A DNA stretch of 64,000 bases from NCBI RefSeq assembly GCF_057098645.1, contig NZ_CM169472.1; one strand, written 5' to 3'. The first letter of the stretch is position 1. Each line of letters opens with the position of its first letter. The notes below the pieces were generated by a model. That model did not search any database. It was not told the DNA's origin and saw only the letters and a list, made by a program, of their open reading frames with translations. Made by a program: the position numbers and the translations under genes. Positions 16,048-34,201 of the stretch are shown here, in pieces.

Positions 16048-16391
16048 TTATCTTATCCAAACATAATAAAAAACCATATGGCCTTTAGTGTACAACAAAA
16101 CCATACTCTTTCCCCTCATTTTAGAGGGGGAAGTGTGGTCCACATCATGTTTTTTCCCACCCATGAAAATGTTCACCTAGGCTGGTGATGCATTTTATGT
16201 ACATCAACTCTTTGAGTTGAATCATTATTTTAGTATTTTTTCTATCATTGTGTAAATGTCTTCGTTTCAATACATCATGCTTGGGGAGCGGTCCCCGTTT
16301 CCTGATAATTAATGCTTGTGGATAGCAACGTCCGTGCCTGTATCGCTCAGACAGACGCTTACCGTGCCATAGACGTGTCTGTTCACATACG

Positions 16392-17568: not shown

Positions 17569-18095
17569 TTGCGTAACTCCGATAATTCGTTAAAGCGTTC
17601 CATAAACATCCCGTAGGCATGGCCTGGAGCCAGTGGAATCACGTTGATCATCTCTGTTGCCGGGATACCTTCCAGCACAGGCCAGAAAGAGCCATCATCA
17701 AGCCCGAGATCGCGGCGTTCGGTTGCCAGCATGATGAGATCGGCATATTTCACGGGTGTACTCATAACCGGGGGTAACCCGTATTTCTCACGGATTACGG
17801 CGTCTATTTTTTCTTCCATCCGTTTATAGTCAGGAAGAAGGCGTTTCAGTGGAGCCGGGATGTCCTGGCAATACGCTTCTGTTGCATCATGCATTAACGC
17901 TTCAAAAGCAAATTCCTGCGGTACCAGTTTGCTGCAAAGCACCGCATGTTGGGCGACGCTGTAGAAGTGTGAAAGATGACCGGCAAAGCGACAGATATTT
18001 GAAAGGGAAACTGCGATATCGTTAATCACGATGTCGTCTTTATTTATCCTGTCATAATAAAAATGCTTCCCGGAAAAAGTTTTAATAAATGACAT
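17559..18095 (-). CDS. HD-domain phosphohydrolase (YfdR-like 5'-deoxynucleotidase)
   Basis: Starts MSFIKTFSGKHFYY...; HD motif ...VAQHAVLCS ... MHDATEAY; the ORF-track start at 18122 is an extension. Confidence 0.7.
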   Translation of the reverse strand: MSFIKTFSGKHFYYDRINKDDIVINDIAVSLSNICRFAGHLSHFYSVAQHAVLCSKLVPQEFAFEALMHDATEAYCQDIPAPLKRLLPDYKRMEEKIDAVIREKYGLPPVMSTPVKYADLIMLATERRDLGLDDGSFWPVLEGIPATEMINVIPLAPGHAYGMFMERFNELSELRKCA

Positions 18096-18222
18096 TTTGT
18101 TCTCCACGTATATGCGCTGCACCGCGCTGAATTTTGGTTAAAGAAAACCCTCGCCATCAGGCGATTATTGAGTCAATTATGTTTCCATAAATGCCCCCGC
18201 AGGGGCATTTGCAGTAAGGAAA

Positions 18223-19047
18223 TCAGGCGGTAAAAGTACCAATAAAGGTTTCTACTTTGCTGTCTTTGAGTTTCTCAACAAGCAGATCACGAAATTCGTT
18301 AGCCATTTCTTCCTGCACTGCTTCCAGCTGAATAATGCGCAGAACCAGTACAGGACGATCGCCAGTGATAATGCTGAGGCGTAATTTAAACGGACGTTCT
18401 TGCAGGCCTTCAAACGGAACGCATTTAAATTCAAATGCCACTGGCATAATGTCTTTGGTCTTCGCTTCGACAGATTCCATCAGGGAGCGTTTGCCGCTGA
18501 AGTCATTATCTTCAAAATCAGCGGTCTGGTTTGCTTCAATCGTGATTTTACGGACTGCCGCAGCCGCTTTTGTTGCCTGAATGGCGTCACCATTAGCATC
18601 AAAGCCCACAAGGTAGTCGGCCCAGTCTTCAATCCATTCTGCCAGTGACTTCTGGGAGTTACGCTCGCCGTTAACAGACAACAGGGCAGAGAACGGTGCT
18701 GTCTTTTTCAGTTTGAGAGTGGCGGTGTTATCTGCGTGACCTGGTTCATCAATAGTACCCAGGTTAAGCACACTGACGGCACGCATATTATCAGCATCGA
18801 TAAAGCAGCGGGTGCCTTCATCTGCAAGATCTTTAGAATAACGGGTAAAATCATCGATGCTGGCAGTGGAAAGCGCGCCACGGAAACGGAAGCGATTTAA
18901 ATTAAATTTTTCCAGATCATGAATGCGGAAATTCTCAGGCAATGCCACAGCATCGGCACCAATCTTACTGATAATTTCATTAACACCCTGAGCAGAAATA
19001 AGGGCATGGATTTGATTAATTGCGGTTGCGTCTAAGTTCTGAGACAT
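18223..19047 (-). CDS. YfdQ-like (DUF2303) phage protein
   Basis: 274 aa, [21 protein letters not shown]...; length and sequence match remembered CPS-53 YfdQ. Confidence 0.65.
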
Positions 19048-19112
19048 AATAAGTCCTCACTATATAAAGATATTCAGTGATGAGATAAATAATCAGTTAA
19101 TTAAGAACGATA

Positions 19113-19475
19113 TTAATGACCTGCTGCGCGTAGTTTTCCGTCAGGTTCACCGGCAAGAGTCAGTAATTGTCCCTGGTCTTCCTGCAGAATAGTCAGGCGA
19201 CCACCGCGATTGACATACATCGGCGTTTCGGTGGTGTCTTCTTCGGAAATTTTCCCGCGGTTAGTCGGGCGAACATATGAGAGTTTGTGTTTGATTTTCA
19301 CACGGTTCTCATCAAATGGTTCGATTTCCAGGTTGAGTGAGACCTTACCTTTGGTTTTCGTGTTCATCACACCGGAAGCGACTTCACTGAGAACTGCGCC
19401 GATTTTGGTTTCAAATACGCCGCCGTCCAGCTCCCCGATAAATGCCTGCACATCAGTACTGCGTTCGCTAGCCAT
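19113..19475 (-). CDS. Phage early protein, hypothetical (YfdP-like position)
   Basis: Likely start MASERSTDVQAFIG... preceded by AGGAG at the right spacing; the track ORF 19113..19706 runs further upstream with no RBS. Confidence 0.5.
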   Translation of the reverse strand: MASERSTDVQAFIGELDGGVFETKIGAVLSEVASGVMNTKTKGKVSLNLEIEPFDENRVKIKHKLSYVRPTNRGKISEEDTTETPMYVNRGGRLTILQEDQGQLLTLAGEPDGKLRAAGH

Positions 19476-20070
19476 TTTGCTGCTCCTCATCATATCGACC
19501 CTGCAAGGTCGGTTGGTTTCTCCACAAAACAGAGAAGAACACCTGCGGTGGCAGCCGCCCGGATGGATTGGGTTATGAGCCCGTCGTCCGGTGATGCTCT
19601 TCTCTGTTTTGTAAAAAGAGCGGTACCAGCCGGAAGCAAGTGTACAAACTGGTACCGCCAAAGCAGTGGCTGTTGTGGTGGGCTTGTCACTCAGGCGTAT
19701 GGTCAACCTGACAATCCGGTGTCCTCAACGGGGAAAGAGTAACCCCGCCATACTTACCGCCGCGCCATTTCGCGGATTACCACAACGCTGAGAGCACTTA
19801 GCCAGTTACAGCACCACACTTTGTCGCGGCTCCATAAATGCCCTCATCGTTGCACCCTGGTCTCTTCCCAGGCGTCAAACCGAATCGCCACGCTGGTTAG
19901 GCGTCTTATCAGCATCATCATTGACTTGCACATTCCGGCTACCTGGTTTGTTTGCCCGAGCAAGGAGTGGATTGTCCCCTTTAACGTCCCCAGACCGCTA
20001 ACGACGCATGTGCCATACGCCGTGTTACAACCAAATTTTGTTTAATCTTGCCTGTGCTGTGTTTCTTTTA

Positions 20071-20100
20071 GATACATTATGTATCCCAAGGGTACATTGT
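20071..20100. promoter_or_regulatory. Candidate OL/pL operator region (palindromes with the GGTACA half-site)
   Basis: Perfect 15-bp palindrome gatacattatgtatc (20071..20085) and gtatcccaagggtacat; the half-site recurs in the cI-cro intergenic region. Confidence 0.4.
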
Positions 20101-20106
20101 CAAGTA

Positions 20107-20129
20107 TAAAAAAACCTGCCGAAGCAGGT
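20107..20129 (-). terminator. Rho-independent terminator downstream of cI
   Basis: Minus-strand hairpin cctgcttcggcagg followed by a U7 tract. Confidence 0.75.
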
Positions 20130-20141
20130 TATAAATATTGA

Positions 20142-20816
20142 TTAGGCCTTTATTATGTATCTTCTTGGTTTTCCTGAGAAAATCACTGTACCAATTATAG
20201 AGCAATTACCGTTGATCTTAATGTAAGGTTCAGGCCAGTTTGGGTTTAATGCTTTGAGGTAACGCTGTGTTCCATCTTCTATCAACCGCTTGAAGGTGGT
20301 TTCGCCTGTATCGTGCATCAATGCAATAACGTCGTCACCGTGGCAGGCAGGGACTTCAGGATCAACAAAAATCATGTCTCCCGGGCGGTACTCATCAATC
20401 ATTGAATCACCAATCACCCGCAAGATATAAGTCATTTCGCCACAGGGTACAGGGCAGGGGTAAGTTTCTGCTGTGCTCAAATCAACCTCAGAATAGCCAA
20501 CTTCTTTCCATGCTCCGGCCTGTACCCATGATATGACAGGGACTAACGTTATTTGTTTGTTAGTGATTGAAACATCAGGTTTTTTTGTGATGTTCGTGGT
20601 CTGGTGTTCTTGATCAAGCCATCCGACAGGCAGGTCGAAACATTTTTCGATGTGCCGCGCCATGCTGTCACCGATATTTTTAGTAGCACCATCTCCCATA
20701 AACCTGCTGGTCTGGGTTGGCTCGCGATCAATCATGGTGGCAAAGGAAGAATTCCCGCCAACACCATCTCTCAGTTTTCTGGCGTTAGACCGCCGGATGT
20801 CATGGACTGTTTTCAT
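20142..20816 (-). CDS. cI: CI-like prophage repressor (HTH plus LexA-like S24 peptidase domain)
   Basis: 224 aa; C-terminal S24 region with GDSM motif (VIGDSMIDEYRPGDMIFVDPE); divergent from a cro-like gene. Confidence 0.85.
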   Translation of the reverse strand: MKTVHDIRRSNARKLRDGVGGNSSFATMIDREPTQTSRFMGDGATKNIGDSMARHIEKCFDLPVGWLDQEHQTTNITKKPDVSITNKQITLVPVISWVQAGAWKEVGYSEVDLSTAETYPCPVPCGEMTYILRVIGDSMIDEYRPGDMIFVDPEVPACHGDDVIALMHDTGETTFKRLIEDGTQRYLKALNPNWPEPYIKINGNCSIIGTVIFSGKPRRYIIKA

Positions 20817-20832
20817 AAAGAAATTAAAACCT

Positions 20833-20851
20833 TTGTACCGATAAGGTACAA
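20833..20851. promoter_or_regulatory. Operator in the cI/cro divergent promoter region (OR-like)
   Basis: Perfect palindrome TTGTACC-gataa-GGTACAA; a second imperfect copy (tgtatacc gga ggtacata) overlaps the cro RBS at 20884..20904. Confidence 0.6.
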
Positions 20852-20906
20852 GTATCTTGAAGGTTCATCTTAATCATGTAATATGTATACCGGAGGTACA
20901 TATTGT

Positions 20907-21107
20907 ATGAAAGCGTATTGGGACTCTTTAACCAAAGAACAGCAGGGCGAGTTGGCCGGAAAAGTTGGCTCAACACCAGGCTATTTACGGCTGGTTTTCA
21001 ATGGTTATAAAAAAGCCAGTTTTGTGCTGGCTAAAAAACTTGAGCAATGCACGTCAGGTGCAATTACGAAATCTGACTTAAGACCGGATATCTATCCGAA
21101 AGATTAA
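20907..21107 (+). CDS. cro: Cro/YdaS-like HTH regulator
   Basis: Small HTH ORF divergent from cI; GGAGG RBS before the ATG at 20907. Confidence 0.7.
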   Translation: MKAYWDSLTKEQQGELAGKVGSTPGYLRLVFNGYKKASFVLAKKLEQCTSGAITKSDLRPDIYPKD

Positions 21108-21138
21108 CAGAACACCTTCAATTTTTAACCACAGAACG

Positions 21139-21702
21139 ATGAGGCTAACCGTGGGTAAGCATCACTGGAAAGTAGAAAAACAGCCTGAGTGGTACGTGAA
21201 AGCTGTCAGAAAAACTATCGCGGCGTTGCCGGGGGGGTACGCTGAAGCTGCTGAGTGGCTAGATGTAACAGAGAACGCTTTATTCAACCGCCTTCGTGCA
21301 GATGGCGATCAGATTTTCCCGCTGGGATGGGCAATGATTTTACAGCGCGCGGCTGGCACTCACTACATTGCGGATGCTGTCGCACAGTCTGCTGGTGGGG
21401 TGTTTGTATCGCTTCCTGAAATTGAGGAAGTAGAGAACGCCGATATAAACCAGCGCCTGCTGGAAGTCATCGAACAGATCGGGAGTTACTCAAAGCAGAT
21501 TCGTTCGGCAATCGAAGATGGGGTAGTGGAGCCACACGAGCAGACAGCAATTAATGATGAGTTGTATCTGTCAATTTCGAAGCTCCAGGAGCATGCAGCA
21601 CTGGTCTACAAAATCTTTTGCGCTCCAGAAAAGAGTGACGCCCGCGAGTGTGCAGCTCCGGGCGTCGTGGCGTTTTGTGTCTGTGGAGAAACTAACGCAT
21701 GA
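21139..21702 (+). CDS. CII-like / YdaT-family phage regulatory protein
   Basis: 187-aa ORF directly after cro; assigned by position and general resemblance to prophage CII/CP76-type proteins. Confidence 0.45.
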   Translation: MRLTVGKHHWKVEKQPEWYVKAVRKTIAALPGGYAEAAEWLDVTENALFNRLRADGDQIFPLGWAMILQRAAGTHYIADAVAQSAGGVFVSLPEIEEVENADINQRLLEVIEQIGSYSKQIRSAIEDGVVEPHEQTAINDELYLSISKLQEHAALVYKIFCAPEKSDARECAAPGVVAFCVCGETNA

Positions 21703-22535
21703 ACAGTTTAACGGCAAATAACCGTTTGTCGCAACAGCTGGTGGTCAGCGTCGCTGAACACCTGTTGTTACGGCATGAATGCAGATTACCAAATCACCTG
21801 GCTGTAAGTAACCACAGAGAACTTTACCTGACTGTGGGGGGCGAGTTGTGCAGGAACTTAACCGCTGGTTTCGTGACGGAAGAGGGCTTTATGTCCATGT
21901 TATTCGTTGGGAGCCAGAAACACAGCGCGTTATCTATCTTCGCAAAGACTACCCGCATGAGTGCTTTAGTCCTTTGTGGAAATTCAGGCGTGATTTTGTT
22001 GAGTGTGAAGGACCACCAGCACATTGATTCTGCCATTCCGGGACGTTACACTGTTCAGGCACCTTATAAAGCGGGTGCCGGGATTGGCGTCCTGGAAATG
22101 TTATCGGCGATATATGACGCGCCAGCGTCTTTTTTATCGTCTGCGTCTGTGCACACCCAAATTATGGTGGGCTGGACGGGGGCACCGAAAGGTGCGCCGG
22201 TTTCCGATAACGCCGGTTACGCCAACCCCGTTCAGTTCACCACCAGCGAAATTGGCGTTTCCGGTGGTGAAGGTAATTCACTGTTATCGGAGGCTGCCAT
22301 CATGGCTACTGTCCCAGCCCTCACTCGTCTGAATGATGAAGACTTACATAAACTCAGTTATGTAACAACTGCACTACGTGCTCTGCGCAAGGTAACTCTT
22401 TCGGATCCGCAGGCGCATCAAGTTCTGGTAGAAACCCTTCTTAACTTGCAGGCTGAACGTATTCGTCTGGCGGATAAGGCTAATTTTCATATTCACCGTC
22501 TCCTGAATATCAGCGGAGGGCATCGTCATGCTTAA
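21699..22535 (+). CDS. Hypothetical phage protein (replication-module position)
   Basis: 278-aa ORF translationally coupled between the CII-like and O-like genes; no motif recognised. Confidence 0.5.
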   Translation: MNSLTANNRLSQQLVVSVAEHLLLRHECRLPNHLAVSNHRELYLTVGGELCRNLTAGFVTEEGFMSMLFVGSQKHSALSIFAKTTRMSALVLCGNSGVILLSVKDHQHIDSAIPGRYTVQAPYKAGAGIGVLEMLSAIYDAPASFLSSASVHTQIMVGWTGAPKGAPVSDNAGYANPVQFTTSEIGVSGGEGNSLLSEAAIMATVPALTRLNDEDLHKLSYVTTALRALRKVTLSDPQAHQVLVETLLNLQAERIRLADKANFHIHRLLNISGGHRHA

Positions 22536-22764
22536 TCCGTTGATCCTCAATATTTGCCGTTTGCTTCAGCGTAAAAAAACATCAATTCCTACAGTTGGGC
22601 AGTGGTACACCACACCTGCAGGGCATGTTCTACGTGTTAGCCTGGTTGACCGTGAATGCCAGAAGGTGATTTGTGAACCGCTGGGCCGTAATTACCGCGT
22701 CAGTATGCCGCTTATAGCCTTTCGCTCCGGAAAAAACATGAAGCATCTCGGAGGTGCAGCATGA
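22528..22764 (+). CDS. Hypothetical small phage protein
   Basis: 78-aa ORF with overlapping stop/start coupling to its neighbours. Confidence 0.4.
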   Translation: MLNPLILNICRLLQRKKTSIPTVGQWYTTPAGHVLRVSLVDRECQKVICEPLGRNYRVSMPLIAFRSGKNMKHLGGAA

Positions 22765-23579
22765 GTATGGAGCTGATGGTTAAAGCGATGAAAATTCGAG
22801 TGGGTAATCCATTGCGAAAACTGGTTCTGATCAAGCTGGCTGATAATGCCAGCGATCAGGGTGAGTGCTGGCCCAGCTACCAGCATATTGCTGACCAGTG
22901 CGAGATTAGCAAACGTTCTGTGATGAATCATATTGCGGCCCTTTGTGAGTCCGGGCTGGTAAAAAAAGTCACCCGGAAAGGTGAAAAAGGTAACTCAAGT
23001 AATATCTATCTCCTTCATCTGGATGGTGCAGGAGATTCACTAGGGGGTAGTGCAAATAATTCACTATCTGGTGCAGCAAATTCACCAGGTAGTGCAGGAG
23101 TTGCACCAGGGGGTAGTGCAGGAGATTCACCCAGAACCAGTCACTCTTTTGAACCAGTCAAAGAACCAGTCAATGAACCAATAGCTGTTGGTGCATCAGT
23201 TGATGAGTCCGTGCGAGTTCGTTCAAACCGACCGGAATATTCTCCGGAGTTTGAGCAGGCATGGCTGGCATATCCCAAACGTGCTGGTGGCAATTCAAAA
23301 TCTGCAGCCTTCAAAGCCTGGAAAGCCCGTTTGAATGAGGGGGTAAACCCCGAAACCATGCTGGAAGGTGTGAAACGCTATGCGGGCTGGGTATCTGCGA
23401 TGGGTAACAGCGGCACACAATTTGTGAAACAGGCTGTCACGTTCTTTGGTCCGGATCGTCATTTCGAAGAATCCTGGGAAGTTCCTGCGGTATCTGCAGC
23501 CAGACGTGAGGACCCGTACTTCAAATCCAGTTACGACAACGTGGACTACAGCCAGATCCCGGCAGGATTCAGGGGGTGA
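22761..23579 (+). CDS. Replication initiator (O-like N-terminal HTH) with a DnaT-like C-terminal domain
   Basis: N-terminal HTH (IADQCEISKRSVMNHIAALCESGLV); Gly/Ser-rich linker encoded by repeats; C-terminus ...DYSQIPAGFRG matches host DnaT ...[10 protein letters not shown]. Confidence 0.7.
   Translation: MSMELMVKAMKIRVGNPLRKLVLIKLADNASDQGECWPSYQHIADQCEISKRSVMNHIAALCESGLVKKVTRKGEKGNSSNIYLLHLDGAGDSLGGSANNSLSGAANSPGSAGVAPGGSAGDSPRTSHSFEPVKEPVNEPIAVGASVDESVRVRSNRPEYSPEFEQAWLAYPKRAGGNSKSAAFKAWKARLNEGVNPETMLEGVKRYAGWVSAMGNSGTQFVKQAVTFFGPDRHFEESWEVPAVSAARREDPYFKSSYDNVDYSQIPAGFRG
23034..23190. repeat. Iteron-like direct repeats inside the O-like gene (candidate ori)
   Basis: ggtgcaggagattcac at 23035 and 23126; five gtagtgca/ggtgcag units; three gaaccagtca units at 23145..23182. 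Confidence 0.5.
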
Positions 23580-23911
23580 TCATGAGTCTTTTGAATGACG
23601 TTCAGAAATTCATTGAAGCCCATCCGGGGTGTACTTCCGGAGACATTGCGGATGCTTTTGCAGGTTACTCACGGCAGCGCGTACTGCAGTCAGCAAGCAA
23701 GTTACGTCAGAGTGGGCGTGTGGCTCACCGTTGTGAAGGGGATACACGCAGACATTTCCCGCGCCTGACTGAGAGAGCGCAGGAGCCGGAACCACAACCA
23801 GTTCGTGAAACCAGACCTGTGCGCAATTTCTATGTCGGCACTAACGATTCCCGGGTGATTTTGTGCCTGACTCGCCAGGCGGAAAAACTGGTCAGGGAGA
23901 TGGCGGCATGA
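23576..23911 (+). CDS. Hypothetical phage protein
   Basis: 111-aa ORF coupled between the replication gene and the LexA-like gene. Confidence 0.4.
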   Translation: MIMSLLNDVQKFIEAHPGCTSGDIADAFAGYSRQRVLQSASKLRQSGRVAHRCEGDTRRHFPRLTERAQEPEPQPVRETRPVRNFYVGTNDSRVILCLTRQAEKLVREMAA

Positions 23912-24234
23912 CGACGTTAACTCAATGCCAGCAGCAGGTGCTGGATATGCTGATTTCTTACCAGAAAGAACGTGGCTTCCCGCCAACCAATCAGGAGGTG
24001 GCAACCATGCTGGGATACCGTTCAGTGAATGCAGCGGTGGAGCATCTTCGCGCACTGGAGAAAAAAGGCGTCATCACGATAAAGCGTGGCGTGGCCCGGG
24101 GGATCACGCTTCATACCGCAGTGAAGGACGACGACAGCGAAGCGGTCGGTATCATCCGCGCACTGCTTGCCGGTGAGGAGAACGCCAGGCTGCGTGCAGC
24201 CCACTGGTTACATGAGAGGGGCCTGAAAGTATGA
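23908..24234 (+). CDS. LexA N-terminal DNA-binding-domain-only protein (no S24 peptidase domain)
   Basis: MTTLTQCQQQVLDMLISYQKERGFPPTNQEVATMLGYRSVNAAVEHLRALEKKGVITIKRGVARGITL closely parallels the LexA N-domain; the protein ends after ~108 aa. Confidence 0.7.
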   Translation: MTTLTQCQQQVLDMLISYQKERGFPPTNQEVATMLGYRSVNAAVEHLRALEKKGVITIKRGVARGITLHTAVKDDDSEAVGIIRALLAGEENARLRAAHWLHERGLKV

Positions 24235-24620
24235 AGTTGATCCTGCCTTTCCCGCCCAGTGTGAACACGTACTGGCGACACCCCAACAAAGGGGCATTTG
24301 CTGGTAAGAGCCTGATAAGCGAGGCGGGGCGAAAATTTCAGAGCGCGGCGTGCGCAGCAATAGTTGAGCAGTTACGTCGTCTGCCGAAACCAACGTCGGC
24401 ACCTGCTTCAGTGGAGATCGTGTTGTTTCCTCCGGATAACCGGATCCGCGATCTGGACAACTATAACAAGGCGCTGTTTGACGCCCTGACCCACGCGGGT
24501 GTGTGGGAAGACGACAGACAGGTGAAAAGAATGCTGGTGGAGTGGGGACCGGTTATCCCGAAAGGGAAGGTCGAGATCACTATCAGTAAGTATGAGAAAC
24601 CGGCGGGTGCAGCCGCCTGA
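24231..24620 (+). CDS. rusA: Holliday junction resolvase RusA
   Basis: MKLILPFPPSVNTYWRH... canonical RusA N-terminus. Confidence 0.9.
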   Translation: MKLILPFPPSVNTYWRHPNKGAFAGKSLISEAGRKFQSAACAAIVEQLRRLPKPTSAPASVEIVLFPPDNRIRDLDNYNKALFDALTHAGVWEDDRQVKRMLVEWGPVIPKGKVEITISKYEKPAGAAA

Positions 24621-24639
24621 TTAAGAGGAGAAACGAAGT

Positions 24640-25449
24640 ATGAATAATCTGATGGTCATTGATGGTATTGAAGTTCGTCGTGATGCTTATGGGCGTTACA
24701 GCCTGAACGATCTGCATCGCGCAGCAGTAGCATCTGGTGCAAATGCCAGAACCAAGGAGCCAGGAAAGTTTCTTTCCAGCCAACAAACTGTTGAGCTTGT
24801 TCATGAATTGACCAACACCCAGAATTTGGGTGTTGACCCGGTGAGTGTGATTCATGGGGGAAATGAACGGGGAACGTATGTCTGCAAGGAACTGGTGTAT
24901 GCCTATGCAATGTGGATCAGCCCTTCATTCCATCTGAAGGTGATCCGTACTTTCGATATGGTAACCAGCGCACCGGAAAAATTATCCGGGCAGGCTGCTG
25001 ACAAGATGCAGGCTGGTGTGATTCTGCTGGACTTTATGCGTCGGGAATTAAACCTGTCTAACTCATCTGTGCTTGGTGCCTGTCAGAAACTCCAGGAGGC
25101 TGTTGGCTTACCGAATCTGGCACCGCGCTATGCCATTGATGCTCCAGCTGATGCACACGATGGCTCAAGTCGCCCGACACTGTCACTGAGTGCACTGCTG
25201 AAACAGTATGGTATCCGCCTGACGGCTAATCAGGCATATCATCAGATGGTGAAGCTGGGGATCGTCGAGCAGCGCGAACGATACAGCCGTACCGCGATTA
25301 ACAACATCAAAAAATTCTGGTCGCTGACAGCGAAAGGCTGCATGTTCGGCAAGAACATCACCAGTCCCGCAAATCCGCGCGAGACGCAGCCGCATTTCTT
25401 CGAATCCCGATTCCCTGAGCTGTTAAAGCTGCTCGATACCGTTCATTGA
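24640..25449 (+). CDS. KilA-N domain protein (antirepressor-like)
   Basis: N-terminal KilA-N-like segment (IEVRRDAYGRYSLNDLHRA). Confidence 0.65.
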   Translation: MNNLMVIDGIEVRRDAYGRYSLNDLHRAAVASGANARTKEPGKFLSSQQTVELVHELTNTQNLGVDPVSVIHGGNERGTYVCKELVYAYAMWISPSFHLKVIRTFDMVTSAPEKLSGQAADKMQAGVILLDFMRRELNLSNSSVLGACQKLQEAVGLPNLAPRYAIDAPADAHDGSSRPTLSLSALLKQYGIRLTANQAYHQMVKLGIVEQRERYSRTAINNIKKFWSLTAKGCMFGKNITSPANPRETQPHFFESRFPELLKLLDTVH

Positions 25450-25450
25450 G

Positions 25451-26446
25451 GTGACCGTGAGAGCACTACTGACCCCTGAAATTGCCCCGCGTATGGGGAT
25501 CGTATTGTTCAGGCCAGGTTCAGAGCTGATGCCCCTGTTTATGCAGGGGCGTGTCCTGCTGGAGCCTGAGCCGGAACGTTATTCATCTTTCGCTAGTGGT
25601 GCCGTTCCGGCGGCATCACAACCGCTGGCGGATGATCCTGCCGTTCGGGCCGTGTTCCGCAATGAGGCAGTGATCCGTCGTGCTGGTGGCGTGGAATGTC
25701 TTGAAAGCTGGTTACTTCGTGAAAAAGGCTGCCAGTGGCCTCATTCCGACTGGCACAGCGAGAACATGACCACAATGCGACACGCTCCGGGTGCAATCCG
25801 TCTGTGCTGGCACTGCGATAACCAGCTGCGCGATCAGTTCACGGAACGGCTGGAATCAATGGCAACGGATAACTGTGCCCGCTGGGTGTTGTCTGTTGTG
25901 CGTCGGGATCTCGGTTTTGATGACAGTCACGTTGTGACAATGCCGGAACTGTGCTGGTGGCTGATTCGTAATGACCTGGCGGATGCCTTACCGGAAAGTG
26001 CAGCCCGTAAGGCACTGAGATTACCGAAGCCTGTTGTGCCGTCTGTCACCCGGGAAAGTGACCTTGTGCCTTCGGTTCCTGCCACCAGCATCATCCAGGA
26101 TAAAGCGAAAAAGGTGCTGGCGCTGAAAGTGGATCCGGAGTCGCCGGAGTCTTTTATGTTACGCCCCAAACGTCGCCGCTGGGTTAATGAAAAGTACACG
26201 CGCTGGGTTAAGACGCAGCCGTGCGCATGTTGTGGAAAGCCAGCTGATGATCCCCACCACCTGATAGGCCACGGTCAGGGTGGAATGGGTACAAAAGCGC
26301 ATGATCTCTTTGTGTTGCCTTTGTGCAGAAAGCATCACGACGAGCTGCATGCGGATACCGTGACATTTGAAGAGAAGTATGGCTCCCAGCTGGAGCTGAT
26401 ATTTCGTTTTATCGATCGTGCGCTGGCAATAGGCGTACTGGCGTAA
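25451..26446 (+). CDS. DUF968-family phage protein (YdfU-like; Cys/His cluster, possible HNH-like nuclease)
   Basis: C-terminal CACCGKPADDPHHL ... LCRKHHDELH cluster; sits before Q as in Qin-type prophages. Confidence 0.6.
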   Translation: MTVRALLTPEIAPRMGIVLFRPGSELMPLFMQGRVLLEPEPERYSSFASGAVPAASQPLADDPAVRAVFRNEAVIRRAGGVECLESWLLREKGCQWPHSDWHSENMTTMRHAPGAIRLCWHCDNQLRDQFTERLESMATDNCARWVLSVVRRDLGFDDSHVVTMPELCWWLIRNDLADALPESAARKALRLPKPVVPSVTRESDLVPSVPATSIIQDKAKKVLALKVDPESPESFMLRPKRRRWVNEKYTRWVKTQPCACCGKPADDPHHLIGHGQGGMGTKAHDLFVLPLCRKHHDELHADTVTFEEKYGSQLELIFRFIDRALAIGVLA

Positions 26447-26459
26447 GTGGAGAACGAGC

Positions 26460-27212
26460 ATGAACCTTGAAGCCTTACCAAAATATTACTCCCCAAAATC
26501 TCCAAAACTGAGTGATGACGCACCGGCGACAGGCTCTGGTGGTTTAACAATTACGGATGTAATGGCTGCGCAGGGGATGGTGCAGTCGAAAGCACCGCTT
26601 GGGTTTGCCTTATTCCTGGCAAAAGTTGGCGTTCAGGATCCTCAGTTTGCGATTGAAGGTCTGCTCAATTACGCGATGGCACTGGATAACCCGACATTGA
26701 ACAAATTGAGTGAAGAAATCCGGTTACAGATCATCCCTTACCTTGTGAATTTTGCCTTTGCTGATTATTCCAGGTCTGCGGCAAGTAAGGCTCGCTGTGA
26801 GCATTGTGATGGTACTGGATTTCATAATGTATTGCGCGAGGTGGTGAAACACTCCAGAAGCGGGGAATCTGTTATCAAGGAAGAGTGGGTGAAGGAACTA
26901 TGTCAGCATTGTCATGGTAAGGGAGAAGTCAGCACAGCGTGCAGAGGGTGTAAGGGTAAAGGTATTGTCCTGGATGAAAAAAGAACCCGGCTTCATGGTA
27001 CGCCTGTTTATAAGATTTGTGGGCGTTGCAATGGTAACCGGTTTAGCCGTTTACCAACCACACTGGCGCGGCATCATGTCCAGAAGCTGGTACCTGCCCT
27101 GACGGATTATCAGTGGTACAAAGGATATGCAGATATCATTGATAAACTGGTTACAAAGTGCTGGCAGGAAGAAGCATATGCAGAGACACAATTGAGAAAA
27201 GTGACAAGATAA
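26460..27212 (+). CDS. Late-gene antiterminator Q (Qin QuuQ/YdfT-like, 250 aa, four CxxCxGxG zinc-finger repeats)
   Basis: CEHCDGTG, CQHCHGKG, CRGCKGKG, CGRCNGNR repeats; immediately upstream of a promoter-terminator pair and the lysis genes. Confidence 0.75.
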   Translation: MNLEALPKYYSPKSPKLSDDAPATGSGGLTITDVMAAQGMVQSKAPLGFALFLAKVGVQDPQFAIEGLLNYAMALDNPTLNKLSEEIRLQIIPYLVNFAFADYSRSAASKARCEHCDGTGFHNVLREVVKHSRSGESVIKEEWVKELCQHCHGKGEVSTACRGCKGKGIVLDEKRTRLHGTPVYKICGRCNGNRFSRLPTTLARHHVQKLVPALTDYQWYKGYADIIDKLVTKCWQEEAYAETQLRKVTR

Positions 27213-27249
27213 ATGATTTTCGCCGAAGATGGCGACATGATGCTTGCGT

Positions 27250-27290
27250 TTTTCAAAAAATATGGATAAGATTTTCCCAACGATGGGCTT
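27250..27290 (+). promoter_or_regulatory. Candidate late promoter PR' / Q-utilisation region
   Basis: TTGCGT-17 nt-TAAGAT about 40 nt upstream of the tR' hairpin; position typical for PR'. Confidence 0.35.
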
Positions 27291-27320
27291 TGTATGTCTA
27301 CCGTTGATAAGATTTAAGAA

Positions 27321-27345
27321 CCCGCCGCTGAGCGGGTTTTTTTGT
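27321..27345 (+). terminator. tR'-like intrinsic terminator downstream of Q
   Basis: aacccgccgctgagcgggttttttt hairpin plus T-tract. Confidence 0.75.
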
Positions 27346-27492
27346 GCCTGATGTCTCATGAAACTATGAAATGGATTGGTGCGTTAAACATTTTTTCTTA
27401 TTATCTTTTAGATTTTGGAGAGATGGGTAACGTCTGTATTCCAGAAACTCGATGAATATTTAATAAATTAGTTTCAATGATGCTTCTAGGTT

Positions 27493-27918
27493 ATGAGTGT
27501 AATGAAAAAGGTATTAATAGCAGCGATAGGTTTTTGTTTAGTTGGTTGTGCAGGTATGAAATTACCTGAGTATTCGCAAGTTAAAGCAAGTCCGTATTAT
27601 ACAGATTGCCGTGCGTTTGCCATGGATGTTTATAAAAATGATGGATACAGCAAAATTGCGAAAACCACTATCCTTAGCATGGATGATGTGAAGGCTAGAT
27701 ATATTGTTACAGGGTGTGTAGTTGCTATGGGGAAAAACACTGTAGAGGAAATTAAAGCTGATCTCTCTGCTAAAGGGAGTTCTTTTGGGCTTATCAGTGG
27801 TGCTTGTTCTAGTGCTGCATGTCGGGTTGATGTAGAGCAGCAAATGAACGCTTATATACTTGGTAGTTATTATGCTACAAATAAAAAATTCCCGGATAAA
27901 ATGAAAGCAGAGTTTTAA
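27493..27918 (+). CDS. Lipoprotein moron (signal peptide with lipobox LVGC, Cys-rich mature part)
   Basis: MKKVLIAAIGFCLVGCAG... (alternative start at 27502); AT-rich; bracketed by near-identical terminators. Confidence 0.65.
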   Translation: MSVMKKVLIAAIGFCLVGCAGMKLPEYSQVKASPYYTDCRAFAMDVYKNDGYSKIAKTTILSMDDVKARYIVTGCVVAMGKNTVEEIKADLSAKGSSFGLISGACSSAACRVDVEQQMNAYILGSYYATNKKFPDKMKAEF

Positions 27919-27996
27919 GCAAACCTTGTTTTCGATTATATGCCGAAGATAAATGTTAGTAACGGCATAATAAGTAAATATATAGCTGTGATAGCA

Positions 27997-28020
27997 ACCC
28001 GCCACTGAGCGGGTTTTTTG
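27997..28020 (+). terminator. Second copy of the tR'-like terminator after the lipoprotein gene
   Basis: aacccgccactgagcgggtttttt, nearly identical to 27321..27345. Confidence 0.7.
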
Positions 28021-28117
28021 TACCTGTAAACTTGGTGCAGTACAGTAAACACGCTGGTGGTCGTGAATACTGACTTTTTATCTTGCTGGCTTTTTAGACA
28101 AGAGTTATTGGTATGTC

Positions 28118-28345
28118 ATGTTAACCAGAAGGGAAAAAGACATGCTAAAACAGCAAGATATGACAGAAACCGCCGCCGCAGTCCTTCATTTCTTACCTGC
28201 TGACAAGTGGGTAACGCCACGCATGATGACGAGAACTACCGGAGTAAGCGAAGCCCAGTGCCAGTTAATACTGACTCAGTTAGTTCTGGCGGGTCTGGCG
28301 AAGGATAACGGCGGGTACGGGAATAAATTCAGACGCTGCCAGTAA
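28118..28345 (+). CDS. Hypothetical small phage protein
   Basis: 75-aa ORF between the moron and the methyltransferase. Confidence 0.4.
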   Translation: MLTRREKDMLKQQDMTETAAAVLHFLPADKWVTPRMMTRTTGVSEAQCQLILTQLVLAGLAKDNGGYGNKFRRCQ

Positions 28346-28495
28346 TGGCGGTTTCCTGCTGTGAAAATGGGCGGCTGGTGGGTGTTGGTAGCACCTGCCA
28401 GCCATTCGCTCATGCTTACTGGTCACAAGCGAACCACGGCCCACTGCTTTAGCGCAAAAGCAGAGTGAGCCTACCAGAGTTACGCTTACTGATCC

Positions 28496-29548
28496 ATGAA
28501 AAATACTGTAAAAATAAACAGTGTTGATTTAATCAACGCTGATTGCCTGCATTTTATTCAGTCCCTGCCTGATAACTCCATTGATCTGATTGTTACCGAT
28601 CCGCCGTACTTCAAAGTGAAGCCCAACGGCTGGGACAATCAGTGGAAAGGGGACGAAGATTACCTGAAGTGGCTGGACCACTGTCTGGCCCAGTTCTGGC
28701 GGGTACTGAAACCAGCCGGAAGCCTTTACCTGTTCTGTGGGCATCGCCTGGCATCTGATATTGAGATCATGATGCGTGAACGTTTCAACGTGCTTAACCA
28801 TATCATCTGGGCGAAGCCGTCCGGACGTTGGAATGGGTGTAATAAAGAAAGTCTGCGCGCATATTTTCCTGCCACAGAGCGCGTTCTGTTTGCTGAACAT
28901 TACCAGGGGCCATATCGCGGCAAAAGTGACGGCTATGCGGCAAAAGAAAGGGAACTCAAACAGCACATAATGGCACCGCTGATATCGTATTTCAGGGATG
29001 CTCGTGCCGAACTGGGTATAACGGCAAAACAAATTGCTGAAGCCACAGGTAAGAAAAATATGGTTTCCCACTGGTTTGGTGCCAGTCAGTGGCAGTTGCC
29101 GAATGAGGCTGACTATCGGAAGTTACAGGCACTGTTTTCCCGTATAGCGGCAGAGAAGTTTCAGGAACAACAACTGGAACAACCACACCACCAGCTGGTG
29201 GCATCTTATGATTCACTGAATCGCAAATATTCTGAATTGCTGGATGAGTTTAAATCTCTCCGGCGCTATTTCTCCGTATCAGTCTCCGTGCCTTATACCG
29301 ATGTCTGGATGCATAAACCCGTTCAGTTCTACCCGGGTAAACATCCGTGTGAGAAACCGGCGGATATGCTCAGGCAAATAATCAATGCCAGTAGTCGACC
29401 TGGTGATCTGGTTGCTGATTTTTTTATGGGATCCGGTTCCACAATAAAAGCAGCAATGGCGCTGGGGCGTCGGGCCTTAGGTGTTGAGCTTGAGTCAGAG
29501 CGGTTTAACCAGACAGTGAAAGAGATAAACGAGCTGGTGGGGAAATAA
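28496..29548 (+). CDS. Orphan DNA methyltransferase (N6-adenine/N4-cytosine class, DPPY motif)
   Basis: LIVTDPPYF catalytic motif and a C-terminal SAM-binding region ([13 protein letters not shown]); no adjacent restriction gene. Confidence 0.8.
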
Positions 29549-29554
29549 TCTGGT

Positions 29555-29577
29555 GGCCACGTCAGGTGGCCTTTTTA
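29555..29577 (+). terminator. Hairpin plus T-tract after the methyltransferase gene
   Basis: ggccacgtcaggtggcc followed by ttttta. Confidence 0.5.
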
Positions 29578-29615
29578 TTTCCATTACACAGCACCCGCAT
29601 CTGCGAGGTGGGGTT

Positions 29616-29831
29616 ATGAAATCCATGGATAAGTTAACAACGGGTGTCGCCTATGGCACCTCAGCAGGTAGTGCCGGTTACTGGTTTTTACAGCTGCTCG
29701 ATAAAGTCACGCCCTCACAGTGGGCAGCAATAGGTGTGCTGGGTAGCCTGGTATTTGGCCTGCTGACGTACCTGACAAACCTTTATTTCAAGATTAAAGA
29801 AGATAAGCGCAAGGCTGCGAGAGGTGAATAA
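29616..29831 (+). CDS. Pinholin, phage 21 S21-like, with dual start (MKSMDK... / MDK...)
   Basis: [71 protein letters not shown] closely matches remembered S21. Confidence 0.85.
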
Positions 29832-30328
29832 TGCCTCCATCATTACGAAAAGCAGTTGCTGCTGCTATTGGTGGCGGAGCAATTGCTATAGCATCAGTGT
29901 TAATCACTGGCCCAAGTGGTGACGATGGCCTGGAAGGTGTCAGCTACATACCATACAAAGATATCGTTGGCGTATGGACTGTATGTCACGGACACACCGG
30001 AAAAGACATCATGCTCGGTAAAACGTATACCGAAGCAGAATGCAAAGCCCTCCTGAATAAAGACCTTGCCACGGTTGCCAGACAAATTAACCCGTACATC
30101 AAAGTCGATATACCGGAAACAACGCGCGGCGCTCTTTACTCGTTCGTCTACAACGTGGGTGCTGGCAATTTCAGAACATCGACGCTTCTTCGCAAAATAA
30201 ACCAGGGCGATATCAAAGGCGCATGTGACCAGCTACGTCGCTGGATATACGCTGGCGGTAAGCAATGGAAAGGCCTGATGACTCGTCGTGAGATTGAGCG
30301 TGAAGTCTGTTTGTGGGGGCAACAATGA
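29831..30328 (+). CDS. SAR endolysin (phage 21 R21-like lysozyme with N-terminal signal-anchor-release helix)
   Basis: N-terminal Gly/Ala-rich SAR helix ([21 protein letters not shown]) followed by a lysozyme domain; start overlaps the holin stop. Confidence 0.85.
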
Positions 30329-30792
30329 GCAGAGTAACCGCGATTATCTCCGCTCTGGTTATCTGCATCATCGTCTGCCTGTCGTGGGCGGTCAATCATT
30401 ACCGTGATAACGCCATCGCCTACAAAGAACAGCGAGATAAAAAAGTCAGTGAGCTGAAGCAGGCGACCGCCACCATTACTGACATGCAGCAGCGCCAGCG
30501 TTCTGCTGATGCACTCGATGCTAAATACACGAAGGAGTTAGCTGATGCGAAAGCTGAAAATGATGCTCTTCGGCGCAAGCTTGATAATGGTGGTCGGGTG
30601 TTCGTCAAAGGAAAATGCCCTGTGCCATCCTCAGCCGAAACCTCCAGCGCCTCCGGCATGGGCAATGATGCCACCGTCGAACTCTCTCCAGTTGCTGGAC
30701 GAAACGTTCTCGGTATCCGGGACGGAATTATCCGCGACCAAACAGCACTGAGAACGCTTCAGGAATACATCAGGACGCAATGCCTTCGATGA
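30325..30792 (+). CDS. Spanin inner-membrane subunit Rz
   Basis: N-terminal TM helix then a coiled-coil periplasmic region; directly after the endolysin. Confidence 0.8.
30545..30751 (+). CDS. Spanin outer-membrane lipoprotein Rz1, embedded in Rz in the +1 frame
   Basis: [21 protein letters not shown] lipobox followed by a proline-rich segment; entirely inside the Rz ORF. Confidence 0.8.
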
Positions 30793-30965
30793 TAGCGATA
30801 ATTTTACTCATCATCCTTCACATCTGGCTCTGTAGACAGGATGGTGATCACTTCTGGAGTGAATCCAGATTAAACATCTCATTGCTGATGCTTGATATTG
30901 AGCATCTTGCGCGCGGTAAGGGGCTGCGTTGAGATAAGAGCCAGTCATTACAAATACCAGGATTT

Positions 30966-30990
30966 AGCCTCGCATTCGCGGGGCTTTTTA
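30966..30990 (+). terminator. Hairpin plus T-tract after the lysis cassette
   Basis: agcctcgcattcgcggggct followed by tttttatt. Confidence 0.5.
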
Positions 30991-31073
30991 TTGCCATTAC
31001 AAAAGCCACTCCCTACAGAGTGGCTTTGATAATGGCTTATACCCTACACGGGATAGCTTAACTGATATCCCTT

Positions 31074-31289
31074 TTAACGGATAAAGGTATTCAAGCCTGA
31101 CACATCATGCGCTGTATCGTCGCCGTATTCCCGTATTAACAGAGACCGTAGCCCGACGGGGAACTCCTTCTGCGCGAGTGTGCGGGAATAATCAAAAACG
31201 ATGCACACCGGGTTTTTACCGCGTTTATGGTTCGCGGGTTTGTCCCTCATGCTCGCCAGTCCTGTGCGGGGGTGGAAGAAACAGGACAC
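31074..31289 (-). CDS. Hypothetical small ORF at the phage right-end region
   Basis: 71-aa ORF with no recognisable features; may not be a real gene. Confidence 0.25.
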   Translation of the reverse strand: MSCFFHPRTGLASMRDKPANHKRGKNPVCIVFDYSRTLAQKEFPVGLRSLLIREYGDDTAHDVSGLNTFIR

Positions 31290-31418
31290 TTACACAGATT
31301 CTTGTGGGCACGATGCTATGCCTTTCTGGATTATCCCGATGCCATTCATGCAAGGTGTTGTATCAGACGTTCGTCAGAGCTGTCAGGCTGACGGGTCCTC
31401 CCGGTGGGGTGGCCTGCC

Positions 31419-31440
31419 ACGGGGCGGGAGCGTCGCGGAA
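31419..31440. other. Candidate cosN (cohesive-end site)
   Basis: acggggcgggagcgtcgcgg resembles lambda cosN ACGGGGCGGCGACCTCGCGG (16 of 20); lies ~186 bp before the small terminase start, as in lambda. Confidence 0.55.
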
Positions 31441-31607
31441 AAAGGCTAGTTTTTGCATTTTTATCGGCCACCATCATCTTTTCATCTTATTGATTATTAA
31501 TGGTTATTTGTTTTTTGTATGTCGAATTGAGTGTTTTTTGTTCGACATCGAACGCGTTTTCTTAAAGTTGTTCGCACGATGCATGTTTAAAGCTCTCCGG
31601 AGGAAAT

Positions 31608-32099
31608 ATGGATCATGAGTTGAAAAACCTGGTGCTGAATATTAATCAACTGGCGGCTTTATCTGGTCTGCACCGCCAGACTGTCGTGGCAAGACTGAAA
31701 AACATTCGTCCCGCTGGTGGACATGACAAACTCAAGCTATACCGGTTGACCGATATTCTGACTGAATTTATGGGGTTACCACCGCCGGTTGCTGAGGGCG
31801 AAATGGATCCACATGAACGCAAAGCCTGGTATCAGTCTGAACGTGAGCGTCTTAAGTTCGAACAGGAAACGGCACAACTCATTCCGGCCAGTGATGTCAG
31901 ACGGGAGTTTGCCATCTGGGCAAAAGCGGTCGTGCAGGTGCTGGAGACATTACCGGATATTCTGGAACGTGACTGCGGCCTGCAGCCTGCCGCTGTGAGC
32001 CGTGTTCAGTCCATTATTGATGATCTGCGCGATCAGATAGCCCTGCGGGTGACCGAAGCAGGTGCGGATGATGAGGAGGAATTACAGCAGGAGGAGTAA
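31608..32099 (+). CDS. Terminase small subunit (Nu1-like HTH)
   Basis: N-terminal HTH (LNINQLAALSGLHRQTVVARL); directly before and coupled to the large terminase. Confidence 0.75.
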   Translation: MDHELKNLVLNINQLAALSGLHRQTVVARLKNIRPAGGHDKLKLYRLTDILTEFMGLPPPVAEGEMDPHERKAWYQSERERLKFEQETAQLIPASDVRREFAIWAKAVVQVLETLPDILERDCGLQPAAVSRVQSIIDDLRDQIALRVTEAGADDEEELQQEE

Positions 32100-34201
32100 T
32101 GCTGAATCAGGAAACCGCAAAGGCAGCACGAACCGATTCAGGTTATATCCTTCGCGCACCGAGACGAATGCTGGTTGCTGATGCCGTTGCTCAGTATATG
32201 CGGGTGCCCATGGGGGCCGGGAATTCAGTCCCGTGGGATCCGCTGGTGGCACCGTATGTTATTGAGCCGATGAACTGCCTGGCCTCGCGTGAATACGACG
32301 CAGTGATATTTGTTGGCCCGGCACGAACTGGCAAGACTATCGGCCTGATTGACGGCTGGGTGATTTACAATGTGATTTGCGATCCTGCTGATATGCTGAT
32401 CATTCAGATGACGGAGGAAAAAGCCCGCGAACACTCCAAAAAACGACTTGCCAGAACGTTTCGCGTCAGCCCGGAAGTGGTCAGTCGCCTGAGTCCGAAC
32501 AAAAATGACAACAACGTTTATGACAGAACATTCCTTGCTGGCAACTACCTGAAAATCGGCTGGCCGTCAGTCAATATCATGTCCTCATCAGATTATAAAT
32601 GCGTGGCGCTGACGGATTATGACCGTTTTCCGGAAGATATTGATGGCGAGGGGGATGCCTTCTCTCTTGCCTCAAAACGTACCACCACATTTATGTCCAG
32701 TGGTATGACGCTGGTGGAGAGTTCCCCCGGCAGGGATGTGAAGGATGTGAAATGGCGACGGACTTCACCGCATGAGGCTCCACCAACCACGGGGATACTG
32801 TCGCTCTATAACCGTGGCGATCGCCGTCGCTGGTACTGGCCCTGTCCACACTGTGGTGAGTATTTTCAGCCCTGCGGCGATGTGGTTGCTGGTTTCCGTG
32901 ATATTGCCGATCCCGTGCTGGCAAGTGAGGCGGCTTATATTCAGTGTCCTTCCTGTTCAGGACGGATTATGCCTGAACAAAAACGTGAGCTGAACGGACG
33001 TGGGGTCTGGTTGCGGGATGGTGAATCCATCAATGCGGATGGCAGTCGTTATGGTGATCCCCGACGCTCACGTATTGCGTCATTCTGGATGGAGGGTCCG
33101 GCAGCTGCTTACCAGACACTCTCGCAACTCGTTTACAAACTGCTTACTGCAGAACAGGAATACGAGACAACCGGAAGTGAAGAAACACTCAAGACGGTTA
33201 TCAATACCGACTGGGGATTACCTTATCTTCCCCGTGCCAGCATGGAGCAACGAAAAAGTGAACTGCTTGAGCAGCGGGCAGAGCCAGTTCCTTCCCGCAG
33301 TGTGCCGGATGGCGTTAATTTCCTGGTGGCGACAGTGGATGTGCAGGCGGGACGTCATCGCCGTTTTGTGGTTCAGGTAACGGGCTATGGCAGCCGTGGC
33401 GAACGCTGGATTATTGATCGTTACAACATCACGCAGTCATTGCGCGGTGACAGCGACGGGGAGAGCCAGCGAATTGATCCGGCCAGCTATCCGGAAGACT
33501 GGGATGTCCTGCTGACGGATGTTTTTCATAAAAGCTGGCCGCTGGCCTCCGATCCTTCTCAACAAATGCGACTGATGGCTATGGCGGTGGACTCCGGCGG
33601 TGAAGACGGGGTCACTGATAATGCCTATAAATTCTGGCGTCGTTGCCGTCGTGATGGCCTTGGTAAACGTATTTACCTGTTTAAGGGCGACAGCATCCGG
33701 CGCGCAAAACTGATCACCCGTACATTCCCTGATAACACCGGACGAACGGGCCGACGGGCGCAGGCCGCAGGTGATGTGCCGCTCTGGCTTCTTCAGACGG
33801 ATGCCCTGAAAGACCGGGTGAATAACGCGTTATGGCGTGACTCTCCAGGTCCCGGCTATGTGCATTTCCCTGACTGGCTGGGGAGCTGGTTTTACGACGA
33901 ACTGACGTATGAAGAGCGGAGTAGTGACGGGAAATGGAGTAAGCCGGGTCGCGGTGCCAACGAAGCTTTTGACCTGATGGTGTATGCCGAGGCTCTGGTC
34001 ATTCTGCATGGATACGAAAAGATCCGCTGGCCGGATGCACCGGAGTGGGCGAGCCTGGAAACCTGGCTGGAGTGTGTCCCGGACAGTACCGAACCGTCAC
34101 CCTCACCGGAACCGGTATCCACGCCTGTTAAAAAACAAAAACGGAAGAAAACAGTAACTGACGATGTTAACCCCTGGCTGACTTCCGGAGGATGGTTATG
34201 A
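32099..34201 (+). CDS. Terminase large subunit (GpA-like)
   Basis: 700-aa ORF with a Walker A-like VGPARTGKT; position and size. Confidence 0.85.
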   Translation: MLNQETAKAARTDSGYILRAPRRMLVADAVAQYMRVPMGAGNSVPWDPLVAPYVIEPMNCLASREYDAVIFVGPARTGKTIGLIDGWVIYNVICDPADMLIIQMTEEKAREHSKKRLARTFRVSPEVVSRLSPNKNDNNVYDRTFLAGNYLKIGWPSVNIMSSSDYKCVALTDYDRFPEDIDGEGDAFSLASKRTTTFMSSGMTLVESSPGRDVKDVKWRRTSPHEAPPTTGILSLYNRGDRRRWYWPCPHCGEYFQPCGDVVAGFRDIADPVLASEAAYIQCPSCSGRIMPEQKRELNGRGVWLRDGESINADGSRYGDPRRSRIASFWMEGPAAAYQTLSQLVYKLLTAEQEYETTGSEETLKTVINTDWGLPYLPRASMEQRKSELLEQRAEPVPSRSVPDGVNFLVATVDVQAGRHRRFVVQVTGYGSRGERWIIDRYNITQSLRGDSDGESQRIDPASYPEDWDVLLTDVFHKSWPLASDPSQQMRLMAMAVDSGGEDGVTDNAYKFWRRCRRDGLGKRIYLFKGDSIRRAKLITRTFPDNTGRTGRRAQAAGDVPLWLLQTDALKDRVNNALWRDSPGPGYVHFPDWLGSWFYDELTYEERSSDGKWSKPGRGANEAFDLMVYAEALVILHGYEKIRWPDAPEWASLETWLECVPDSTEPSPSPEPVSTPVKKQKRKKTVTDDVNPWLTSGGWL

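Follow-up and report, generated by a model that had tools for sequence, protein, structure and literature searches.

A very probable lambda-type cos site upstream of the terminase genes of an apparently intact lambdoid prophage in Escherichia coli prfC

Variation of the cos site among lambda-like phages has reportedly been treated by Vahanian et al. 2017, as cited by others. In these phages, variation in cosN, conservation of cosQ, and swapping of cassettes made up of cosB and the small terminase have already been described (PMC4669245). Natural changes in cosN are confined to bp 7 to 12, the right half of the site, which is tolerant of change (bp 9 and 12 vary in N15, and bp 8, 9, and 11 vary in Gifsy-1), while cosQ is highly conserved and the CG dinucleotides flanking the nicks are conserved across the group as well (PMC4669245). 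The cosB of lambda has a "complex" layout, in which a forward R3 is followed by I1, an inverted R2, and a forward R1 (PMC4669245). R3 occupies bp 50 to 65 in lambda and bp 48 to 60 in N15 (PMC9026076), and the lambda IHF site lies at bp 79 to 91. Lambda and phage 21 have cosQ and cosN in common and differ in cosB and in the recognition helix of the small terminase (PMC4669245).

We analyzed a stretch of 64,000 nucleotides (the window) from contig NZ_CM169472.1 of RefSeq assembly GCF_057098645.1, in which a preliminary description had pointed to a lambda-like cos site. Very probably, this site is the cos of a lambdoid prophage that occupies prfC in E. coli, belongs to the mEp460/Ayreon/cdtI group, and is complete and apparently intact. 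The string quoted in the preliminary description, acggggcgggagcgtcgcgg, is present at 31419 to 31438, within the interval of 31419 to 31440 given there, and its likeness to the lambda cosN was borne out: lambda (J02459) reads ACGGGGCGGCGACCTCGCGG across its joined ends, as stated there, and 16 of the 20 bases agree between the two 20-mers. With three mismatches allowed, a search of the window for the lambda 20-mer gave no match, the true distance being four mismatches; at up to four mismatches, with both strands scanned, there was a single match in the 64 kb. In 300 first-order Markov simulations of the window, chance matches to the lambda 20-mer had a mean of 0.06 per window, and for this reason the 20-mer match taken alone is weak evidence, only marginally beyond chance. 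The same figure for the 16/20 match is what can be said for a chance resemblance, that is, for a GC-rich stretch that looks like the lambda cosN and has no role in packaging. Against it stand the sequences around the 20-mer and their distribution among relatives.

The heptamer GGGTCCT at 31393 to 31399 (+) is identical at 7/7 positions to the lambda packaging-termination signal cosQ (48473 to 48479), and the distance from cosQ to the top-strand nick is 22 nt in the window versus 23 nt in lambda. cosN itself (31420 to 31435) reads CG-GGGCGGGAGCGT-CG, with predicted nicks at 31421/31422 on the top strand and 31433/31434 on the bottom strand. The predicted 12-nt 5′ cohesive end, GGGCGGGAGCGT (31422 to 31433, +; bp 1 is 31422), was assigned by homology with the lambda end, GGGCGGCGACCT, to which it is identical at 8/12 positions. 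All of bp 1 to 6 agree (6/6), and the differences are at bp 7, 8, 9, and 11 only, so that annealing with the ends of lambda would be imperfect. Since all four differences fall in the variable right half of cosN, they agree with the published natural pattern. The CG dinucleotides are kept at both nick flanks, as in lambda, and the rotational symmetry of cosN extends to 8/16 bp, compared to 10/16 in lambda. A spacer between cosN and cosB, bp 13 to 33 (CGCGGAAAAAGGCTAGTTTTT; 31434 to 31454, +), forms a conserved block that cdtI, Tritos, and phi458 share without a difference and that mEp043/LLS, VT1-Sakai, Fels-1, and Gifsy-2 have in similar form despite the different cosB sequences that lie beyond it. 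A literature search for the literal string GGGCGGGAGCGT returned unrelated eukaryotic papers only, and no report of virion-end sequencing for this cosN variant was found in the accessible literature.

Alignment with the cos regions of lambda-family phages, which the preliminary description had proposed as a check, showed that the same cosQ-cosN forms the ends of two phage records. The records of cdtI (AB285204) and Tritos (OV696610) end with CCACG and begin with GGGCGGGAGCGT CGCGGAAAAAGGCTAGTTTTT; both are opened exactly at the predicted nick. Around 30 nt to the left of the nick are the same in these phages and in the window (1 to 3 substitutions), the sequences are identical from the nick through bp 33, and the head and tail genes are ~97% identical. 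In contrast, cosB beyond bp 33 is unrelated to that of the window, and the small terminase is only 42% identical. Tritos forms plaques, and the paper on this phage contains no description of how the ends of the record were chosen (PMC9928086). The record of a third phage, Hafnia phage yong2, opens at the base that corresponds to bp 13 and closes with its 12-nt sequence. It is the combination of a lambda-identical cosQ at the right spacing with identity to the termini of deposited phage records that places the site well beyond chance.

The distribution of the site among relatives argues in the same direction. The cos site is retained at 78 of 80 IMG/VR loci that encode small terminases closely related to that of the window (77 by pattern and one with a point change), and the remaining two have truncated genes. 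The upstream flank is complete at each of the 80 loci, most of which look like prophages within the genomes of isolates; their contig ends are thus no proxy for physical ends. In the 77 relatives that match by pattern, the cohesive end varies at bp 11 to 12 only, and cosQ is kept in nearly all, with GGCTCCT instead of GGGTCCT at four loci. Homology among the 77 has its exact start at cosQ; directly to the left, ~30 to 45 nt upstream of cosN (31377 to 31392 in the window), at least seven unrelated sequences occur, which marks a sharp mosaic boundary. The cosN motif was not seen at unrelated positions in the relatives. Among 5,426 complete genomes of E. coli, about 2,167 also contain a match to the region. 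Retention in 77/80 relatives, together with the placement of the site directly upstream of terminase genes, leaves a chance resemblance with practically no probability; the comparative data effectively refute it. Directly to the left of cosQ, a GATAATCATTATC-like palindrome occurs in lambda, mEp043, VT1-Sakai, and cdtI/phi458. The window (31360 to 31392) and Tritos are without this palindrome and have CTGTCAGGCTG repeats instead, in three tandem copies in Tritos.

Three plaque-forming phages (bioRxiv 10.1101/2025.11.03.685801), PhiR40_1, PhiR47_1, and PhiR55_1 (PV340560, PV340566, and PV340571), encode the small terminase of the window without a single difference (100% identity). The cos region of PhiR40_1 is identical at 245/249 bases, with all proposed elements included. 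In all three records, cos is unannotated and the sequence is in prophage order; the rest of the genome is mosaic, with 60 to 64% coverage of the late half.

LLS, mEp213, and mEp043 resemble the window in small-terminase family (62 to 63% identity), cosQ, the CG flanks, the bp 13 to 33 block, and the R3/R2/R1 layout, but their putative cohesive end, GGGCGGCGCGCT, differs at bp 7 to 11, and their cosB is shorter, with the small-terminase ATG at bp 130. In the annotation of LLS, GGGCGGCGCGCT is marked at the corresponding place as a 5′ cohesive end of 12 nt; the LLS cos has been called inferred, matching the "putative" cos of mEp213, with Vahanian et al. 2017 and M. Feiss cited as sources (PMC12315714). 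The small terminase of cyanophage Cr-LKS3 is a homologue of that of the window (tblastn E value of 2e-17), and for this phage 5′ cohesive ends of 9 nt, GGGCTCGCG, beginning with GGGC and with lambda-matching flanks, have been reported (PMC9303873). Together with the record ends of cdtI, Tritos, and yong2, these measured ends of a distant relative lend indirect support to the predicted 5′ overhang of the window. In Gifsy-2, 14 nt rather than 12 (GGTGGCTTCGGGCT) lie between the CACG and CGCGG flanks, ~170 nt upstream of the small-terminase gene, and the first six bases of GGTGGCTTCGGGCT differ from GGGCGG; judging from this sequence, the length of the overhang or the positions of the nicks in Gifsy-2 may differ from those of lambda. 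With 9 nt in Cr-LKS3 and 14 nt between conserved flanks in Gifsy-2, the wider family has no constant length of overhang. A further record, mEp460_4F5 (LR595868.1), was set aside as evidence on the ends. It starts 5 nt before the nick and is without 3 nt in cosN (GGGCGGGAGCG-CGG) compared to all relatives, probably as an assembly artifact where the physical genome ends.

To the right of the conserved block, the window contains candidate counterparts of R3, I1, R2, and R1 of the lambda cosB. A candidate R3, CCACCATCATC, was assigned by sequence pattern as a binding site for the small terminase at 31468 to 31478 (+), or bp 47 to 57, and is thus ~50 bp from the nick, as in lambda; a CATCATC- or CATCACC-type motif is present at the R3 position in 6/6 of the other aligned cosB types with this R-motif family. 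The candidate I1 (IHF site), AATCAATAAGATG, is on the minus strand at 31483 to 31495 (bp 62 to 74) and matches WATCAANNNNTTR at 12/13 positions. With up to one mismatch to this consensus allowed, it is the single match in cosB, where 0.12 would be expected; the figure describes a match to the consensus, not binding. A match with zero or one mismatch is found on the same strand at bp 61 to 76 in the window, cdtI, phi458, mEp043, VT1-Sakai, and Fels-1, and the match is perfect, at the conserved position, in two of the relatives of the window. In Gifsy-2, in contrast, the match is at bp 76 to 88 on the opposite strand. The candidate R2, ATGTCGAA, at 31519 to 31526 (bp 98 to 105), is on the minus strand, where it reads TTCGACAT, and is therefore inverted relative to R3 and R1. 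The candidate R1, TTCGACATCGAAC, is at 31541 to 31553 (+; bp 120 to 132). R2 and R1 form an inverted repeat whose 8-bp arms match perfectly and stand 14 nt apart, and in variant cosB types the two co-vary (TCGACAT/TCGACAT, TTAACAT/TCAACAT, and TCAACAT/TCAACAT). An uncertain fourth R-like copy may be present at 31568 to 31577 (+; TTGTTCGCAC); it shares TTGTTCG with the context of R1 and is conserved in phi458-type relatives.

The proposed layout of the window cosB, with R3 forward, an IHF-like site, R2 inverted, and R1 forward, is that of lambda, although the sequences of the R sites are unrelated to those of lambda. Eight cos types from phages with this family of small terminase were compared after anchoring at the nick (window, phi458/mEp460, mEp043/LLS, yong2, VT1-Sakai, Fels-1, Gifsy-2, and cdtI/Tritos). 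R3 forward, R2 inverted, and R1 forward were found in 7/8 types, window included, with the R motif changing in concert in each phage; the exception is cdtI/Tritos, which has different cosB repeats of the TTTTCACCTG type. The assignments of the R and IHF sites, inferred as they are from sequence pattern and position, are those of candidates. A weak terminator-like hairpin at 31539 to 31554 (+) coincides with the candidate R1. A role of R1 as a terminator was considered and set aside; the hairpin is not kept in phi458-type relatives, which retain the R-site layout.

The small-terminase gene begins at ATG 31608 and ends at 32099 (+). Its start is at bp 187, compared to bp 191 in lambda, in agreement with the distance of ~186 bp noted in the preliminary description. 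The 163-aa product, which PGAP labels only as "DUF1441 family protein," matches Pfam DUF1441 (E value of 4.6e-44) and PHROG 141, "terminase small subunit" (E value of 2.7e-77). BLASTP showed no similarity between this protein and lambda Nu1. At the level of profiles, it cross-matches phrog_57, the family of Nu1, at 8e-9, and lambda Nu1 matches phrog_141 in return at 5.6e-8, nearly over the full length. On the basis of these reciprocal matches, the small terminase is probably a remote relative of Nu1 and not a close homologue, with the link at the profile level only. An AlphaFold model of the small terminase (mean pLDDT of 76) has an N-terminal strand-helix-helix-beta-hairpin-helix unit followed by long helices. 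All Foldseek matches to the model were nonsignificant, several MerR-type winged-helix DNA-binding domains being among them; the match to the DNA-binding domain of Nu1 (1J9I), likewise nonsignificant (E value of 2.8, TM score of 0.54 on the target, root mean square deviation of 2.5 Å over 50 columns), is weakly consistent with the relation to Nu1. A sequence search of the PDB with the small terminase returned nothing significant.

The large-terminase gene follows at 32099 to 34201 (+). Its 700-aa product contains the Pfam domains GpA_ATPase (E value of 8.7e-72) and GpA_nuclease (E value of 1.1e-85) and shares 25% identity with lambda gpA in an alignment of 623 columns (E value of 6e-19). Downstream are a lambda-family portal gene and then a ClpP-capsid fusion, so that the head genes are of the Gifsy-2 type; in this, as in its DUF1441 small terminase, the window differs from lambda. 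Headful (pac) packaging, in which the cos-like sequence would not be a cleavage site, had been named in the preliminary description as a finding that would contradict a cos. Nothing was found in favor of it. The gpA ATPase and nuclease domains of the large terminase and the full cosQ-cosN-cosB architecture of the site both argue against it, as does the published large-terminase phylogeny, in which the close relatives Ayreon (PMC5764929) and LLS (PMC12315714) are placed in the cos, lambda-TerL group; we consider headful packaging extremely improbable. The proposal of a lambda-like cos upstream of the small-terminase gene is instead supported, both by the order and spacing of cosQ, cosN, and cosB and by the gpA-family large-terminase gene. 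With a complete set of lambda-type cos elements directly upstream of the terminase genes, what was a marginal 20-mer match becomes a very probable cos.

Comparison with phi458, mEp460, and Ayreon suggests where the specificity of this packaging system may reside. These phages have a cosQ-cosN identical to that of the window and the small-terminase ATG at bp 187, and the large terminase is near-identical between the window and phi458/mEp460. Relative to phi458, the sequence of the window is unrelated to the left of cosQ, 93 to 100% identical over cosQ-cosN (31390 to 31449; 100% over 31420 to 31449), 67 to 87% identical through cosB and ~200 nt into the small-terminase gene, and ~100% identical from 31810 onwards. 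The N-terminal ~70 residues contain every difference from the phi458 small terminase; the C-terminal ~95 residues show none. The R motifs also differ, being TCATCACC/TCGACACC in phi458/mEp460 versus CCACCATC/TTCGACAT in the window. This arrangement parallels that of lambda and phage 21 (PMC4669245). It is possible, and we propose it tentatively, that cosB and the N-terminal part of the small terminase form a cassette in the window that confers a packaging specificity distinct from that of phi458/mEp460.

The site lies within a full-length prophage. The attL core, ATTATTTCTCACCC, is inside a prfC remnant at 12609 to 12622 (+) and has an exact repeat at 55730 to 55743 (+), the 14-bp attR core; together, the two set a unit of 43,121 bp. 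The host genes rsmC, holD, rimI, and yjjG are to the left of the prophage and prfC is to the right, where the end of the phage supplies a replacement 5′ end that gives the prfC open reading frame (ORF) a new start. The integrase gene is at 12853 to 14091, and homology to phage Ayreon spans 12581 to 55743, of which Ayreon covers only 66%. Ayreon/cdtI have been reported to integrate in prfC (PMC5764929). Counted from the predicted nick, the left arm (31422 to 55729) is 24,308 bp and the right arm (12609 to 31421) is 18,813 bp, and the length of the unit falls inside the range of the relatives (42 to 47 kb). A cos belonging to a PICI was rejected as an explanation, given that the site is inside a full-length prophage and directly upstream of the prophage's own terminase genes.

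Many lambdoid prophages of E. coli are defective, and the main rival to the cos of a functional phage is a relic, in which cos is genuine in sequence and the prophage is noninducible or unable to assemble virions. The early region, which is mosaic compared to known phages, could be read in this way: Ayreon covers only 66%, and the otherwise closely related prophage of strain YPE10 differs beside the integrase. However, both att cores are intact, the 43.1-kb unit is plausible in length, and uninterrupted ORFs are present for the integrase, both terminase subunits, the portal, the protease-capsid fusion, the tape measure (1,031 aa), J (1,160 aa), and the tail fiber (1,009 aa). The late region (27,996 to 51,700) is 99.92% identical to YPE10, in which PGAP flagged no pseudogenes there, and the identical small terminase and nearly identical cos of plaque-forming phages also argue against a relic, which we regard as quite unlikely. 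An apparently intact prophage with its own cos is thus the reading that we follow here.

Several other features of the prophage were observed. Beside the integrase, at 14244 to 15851 (−), a 535-aa ORF matches the dCTPase anti-phage defense family in PADLOC (E value of 1.9e-164) and contains a cytidine/dCMP deaminase domain. The YPE10 prophage, otherwise 97 to 99.9% identical, has the defense gene Dsr1 at the position of the dCTPase ORF, and this substitution points to a putative swappable slot for defense genes next to the integrase. Upstream of cos, at 28496 to 30792, are an ORF for a 350-aa DNA methyltransferase and a lysis cassette that encodes a holin-like product of 71 aa, a lysozyme of 165 aa, and Rz with an embedded Rz1-like ORF. 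In these products the cassette resembles that of phage 21. Its equivalents in YPE10 are named EssD and RrrD by PGAP. Between the lysis cassette and cos, at 30966 to 30985 (+), there is a terminator-like hairpin with a strong stem of 8 pairs (6 GC) followed by a T-run.

If the system operates like that of lambda, induction and rolling-circle replication would be followed by binding of the small terminase to the R sites of cosB through its putative N-terminal helix-turn-helix, a step proposed from homology with lambda, and a bend induced by IHF between R3 and R2 would assist this binding. The bound small terminase would position the gpA-family large terminase on cosN, where it would nick the top strand at 31421/31422 and the bottom strand at 31433/31434 to yield 12-nt 5′ overhangs of GGGCGGGAGCGT. 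Packaging would then run to the right, from the terminase, head, and tail genes over the joined att site into the early and lysis genes, and would end at the next cos, with cosQ (31393 to 31399) needed for the terminating cut. The predicted virion chromosome would be 43,121 bp in length, extending from 31422 at its left end to 31421 (top) and 31433 (bottom) at its right end. What the comparison demonstrates is the set of sequence elements with their spacing and conservation, together with the gene families; that proteins bind the R and IHF sites, where exactly the nicks fall, and that the prophage is inducible are inferred.

The finding is an ordinary one, since two published phage records open at the same cosQ-cosN and near-identical copies abound in E. 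coli. It is a sound annotation point and nothing new in principle, the cos type and its natural variation having already been described (PMC4669245). The predicted virion ends would be useful for annotation, for choosing the start of phage records, and for assigning the direction of packaging, as well as for considering cos-dependent transduction or hijacking by satellites. If the proposed difference in specificity is true, the type found in the window and that of phi458/mEp460 would constitute an uncharacterized natural specificity pair, like that of lambda and phage 21, in the DUF1441 family of small terminases.
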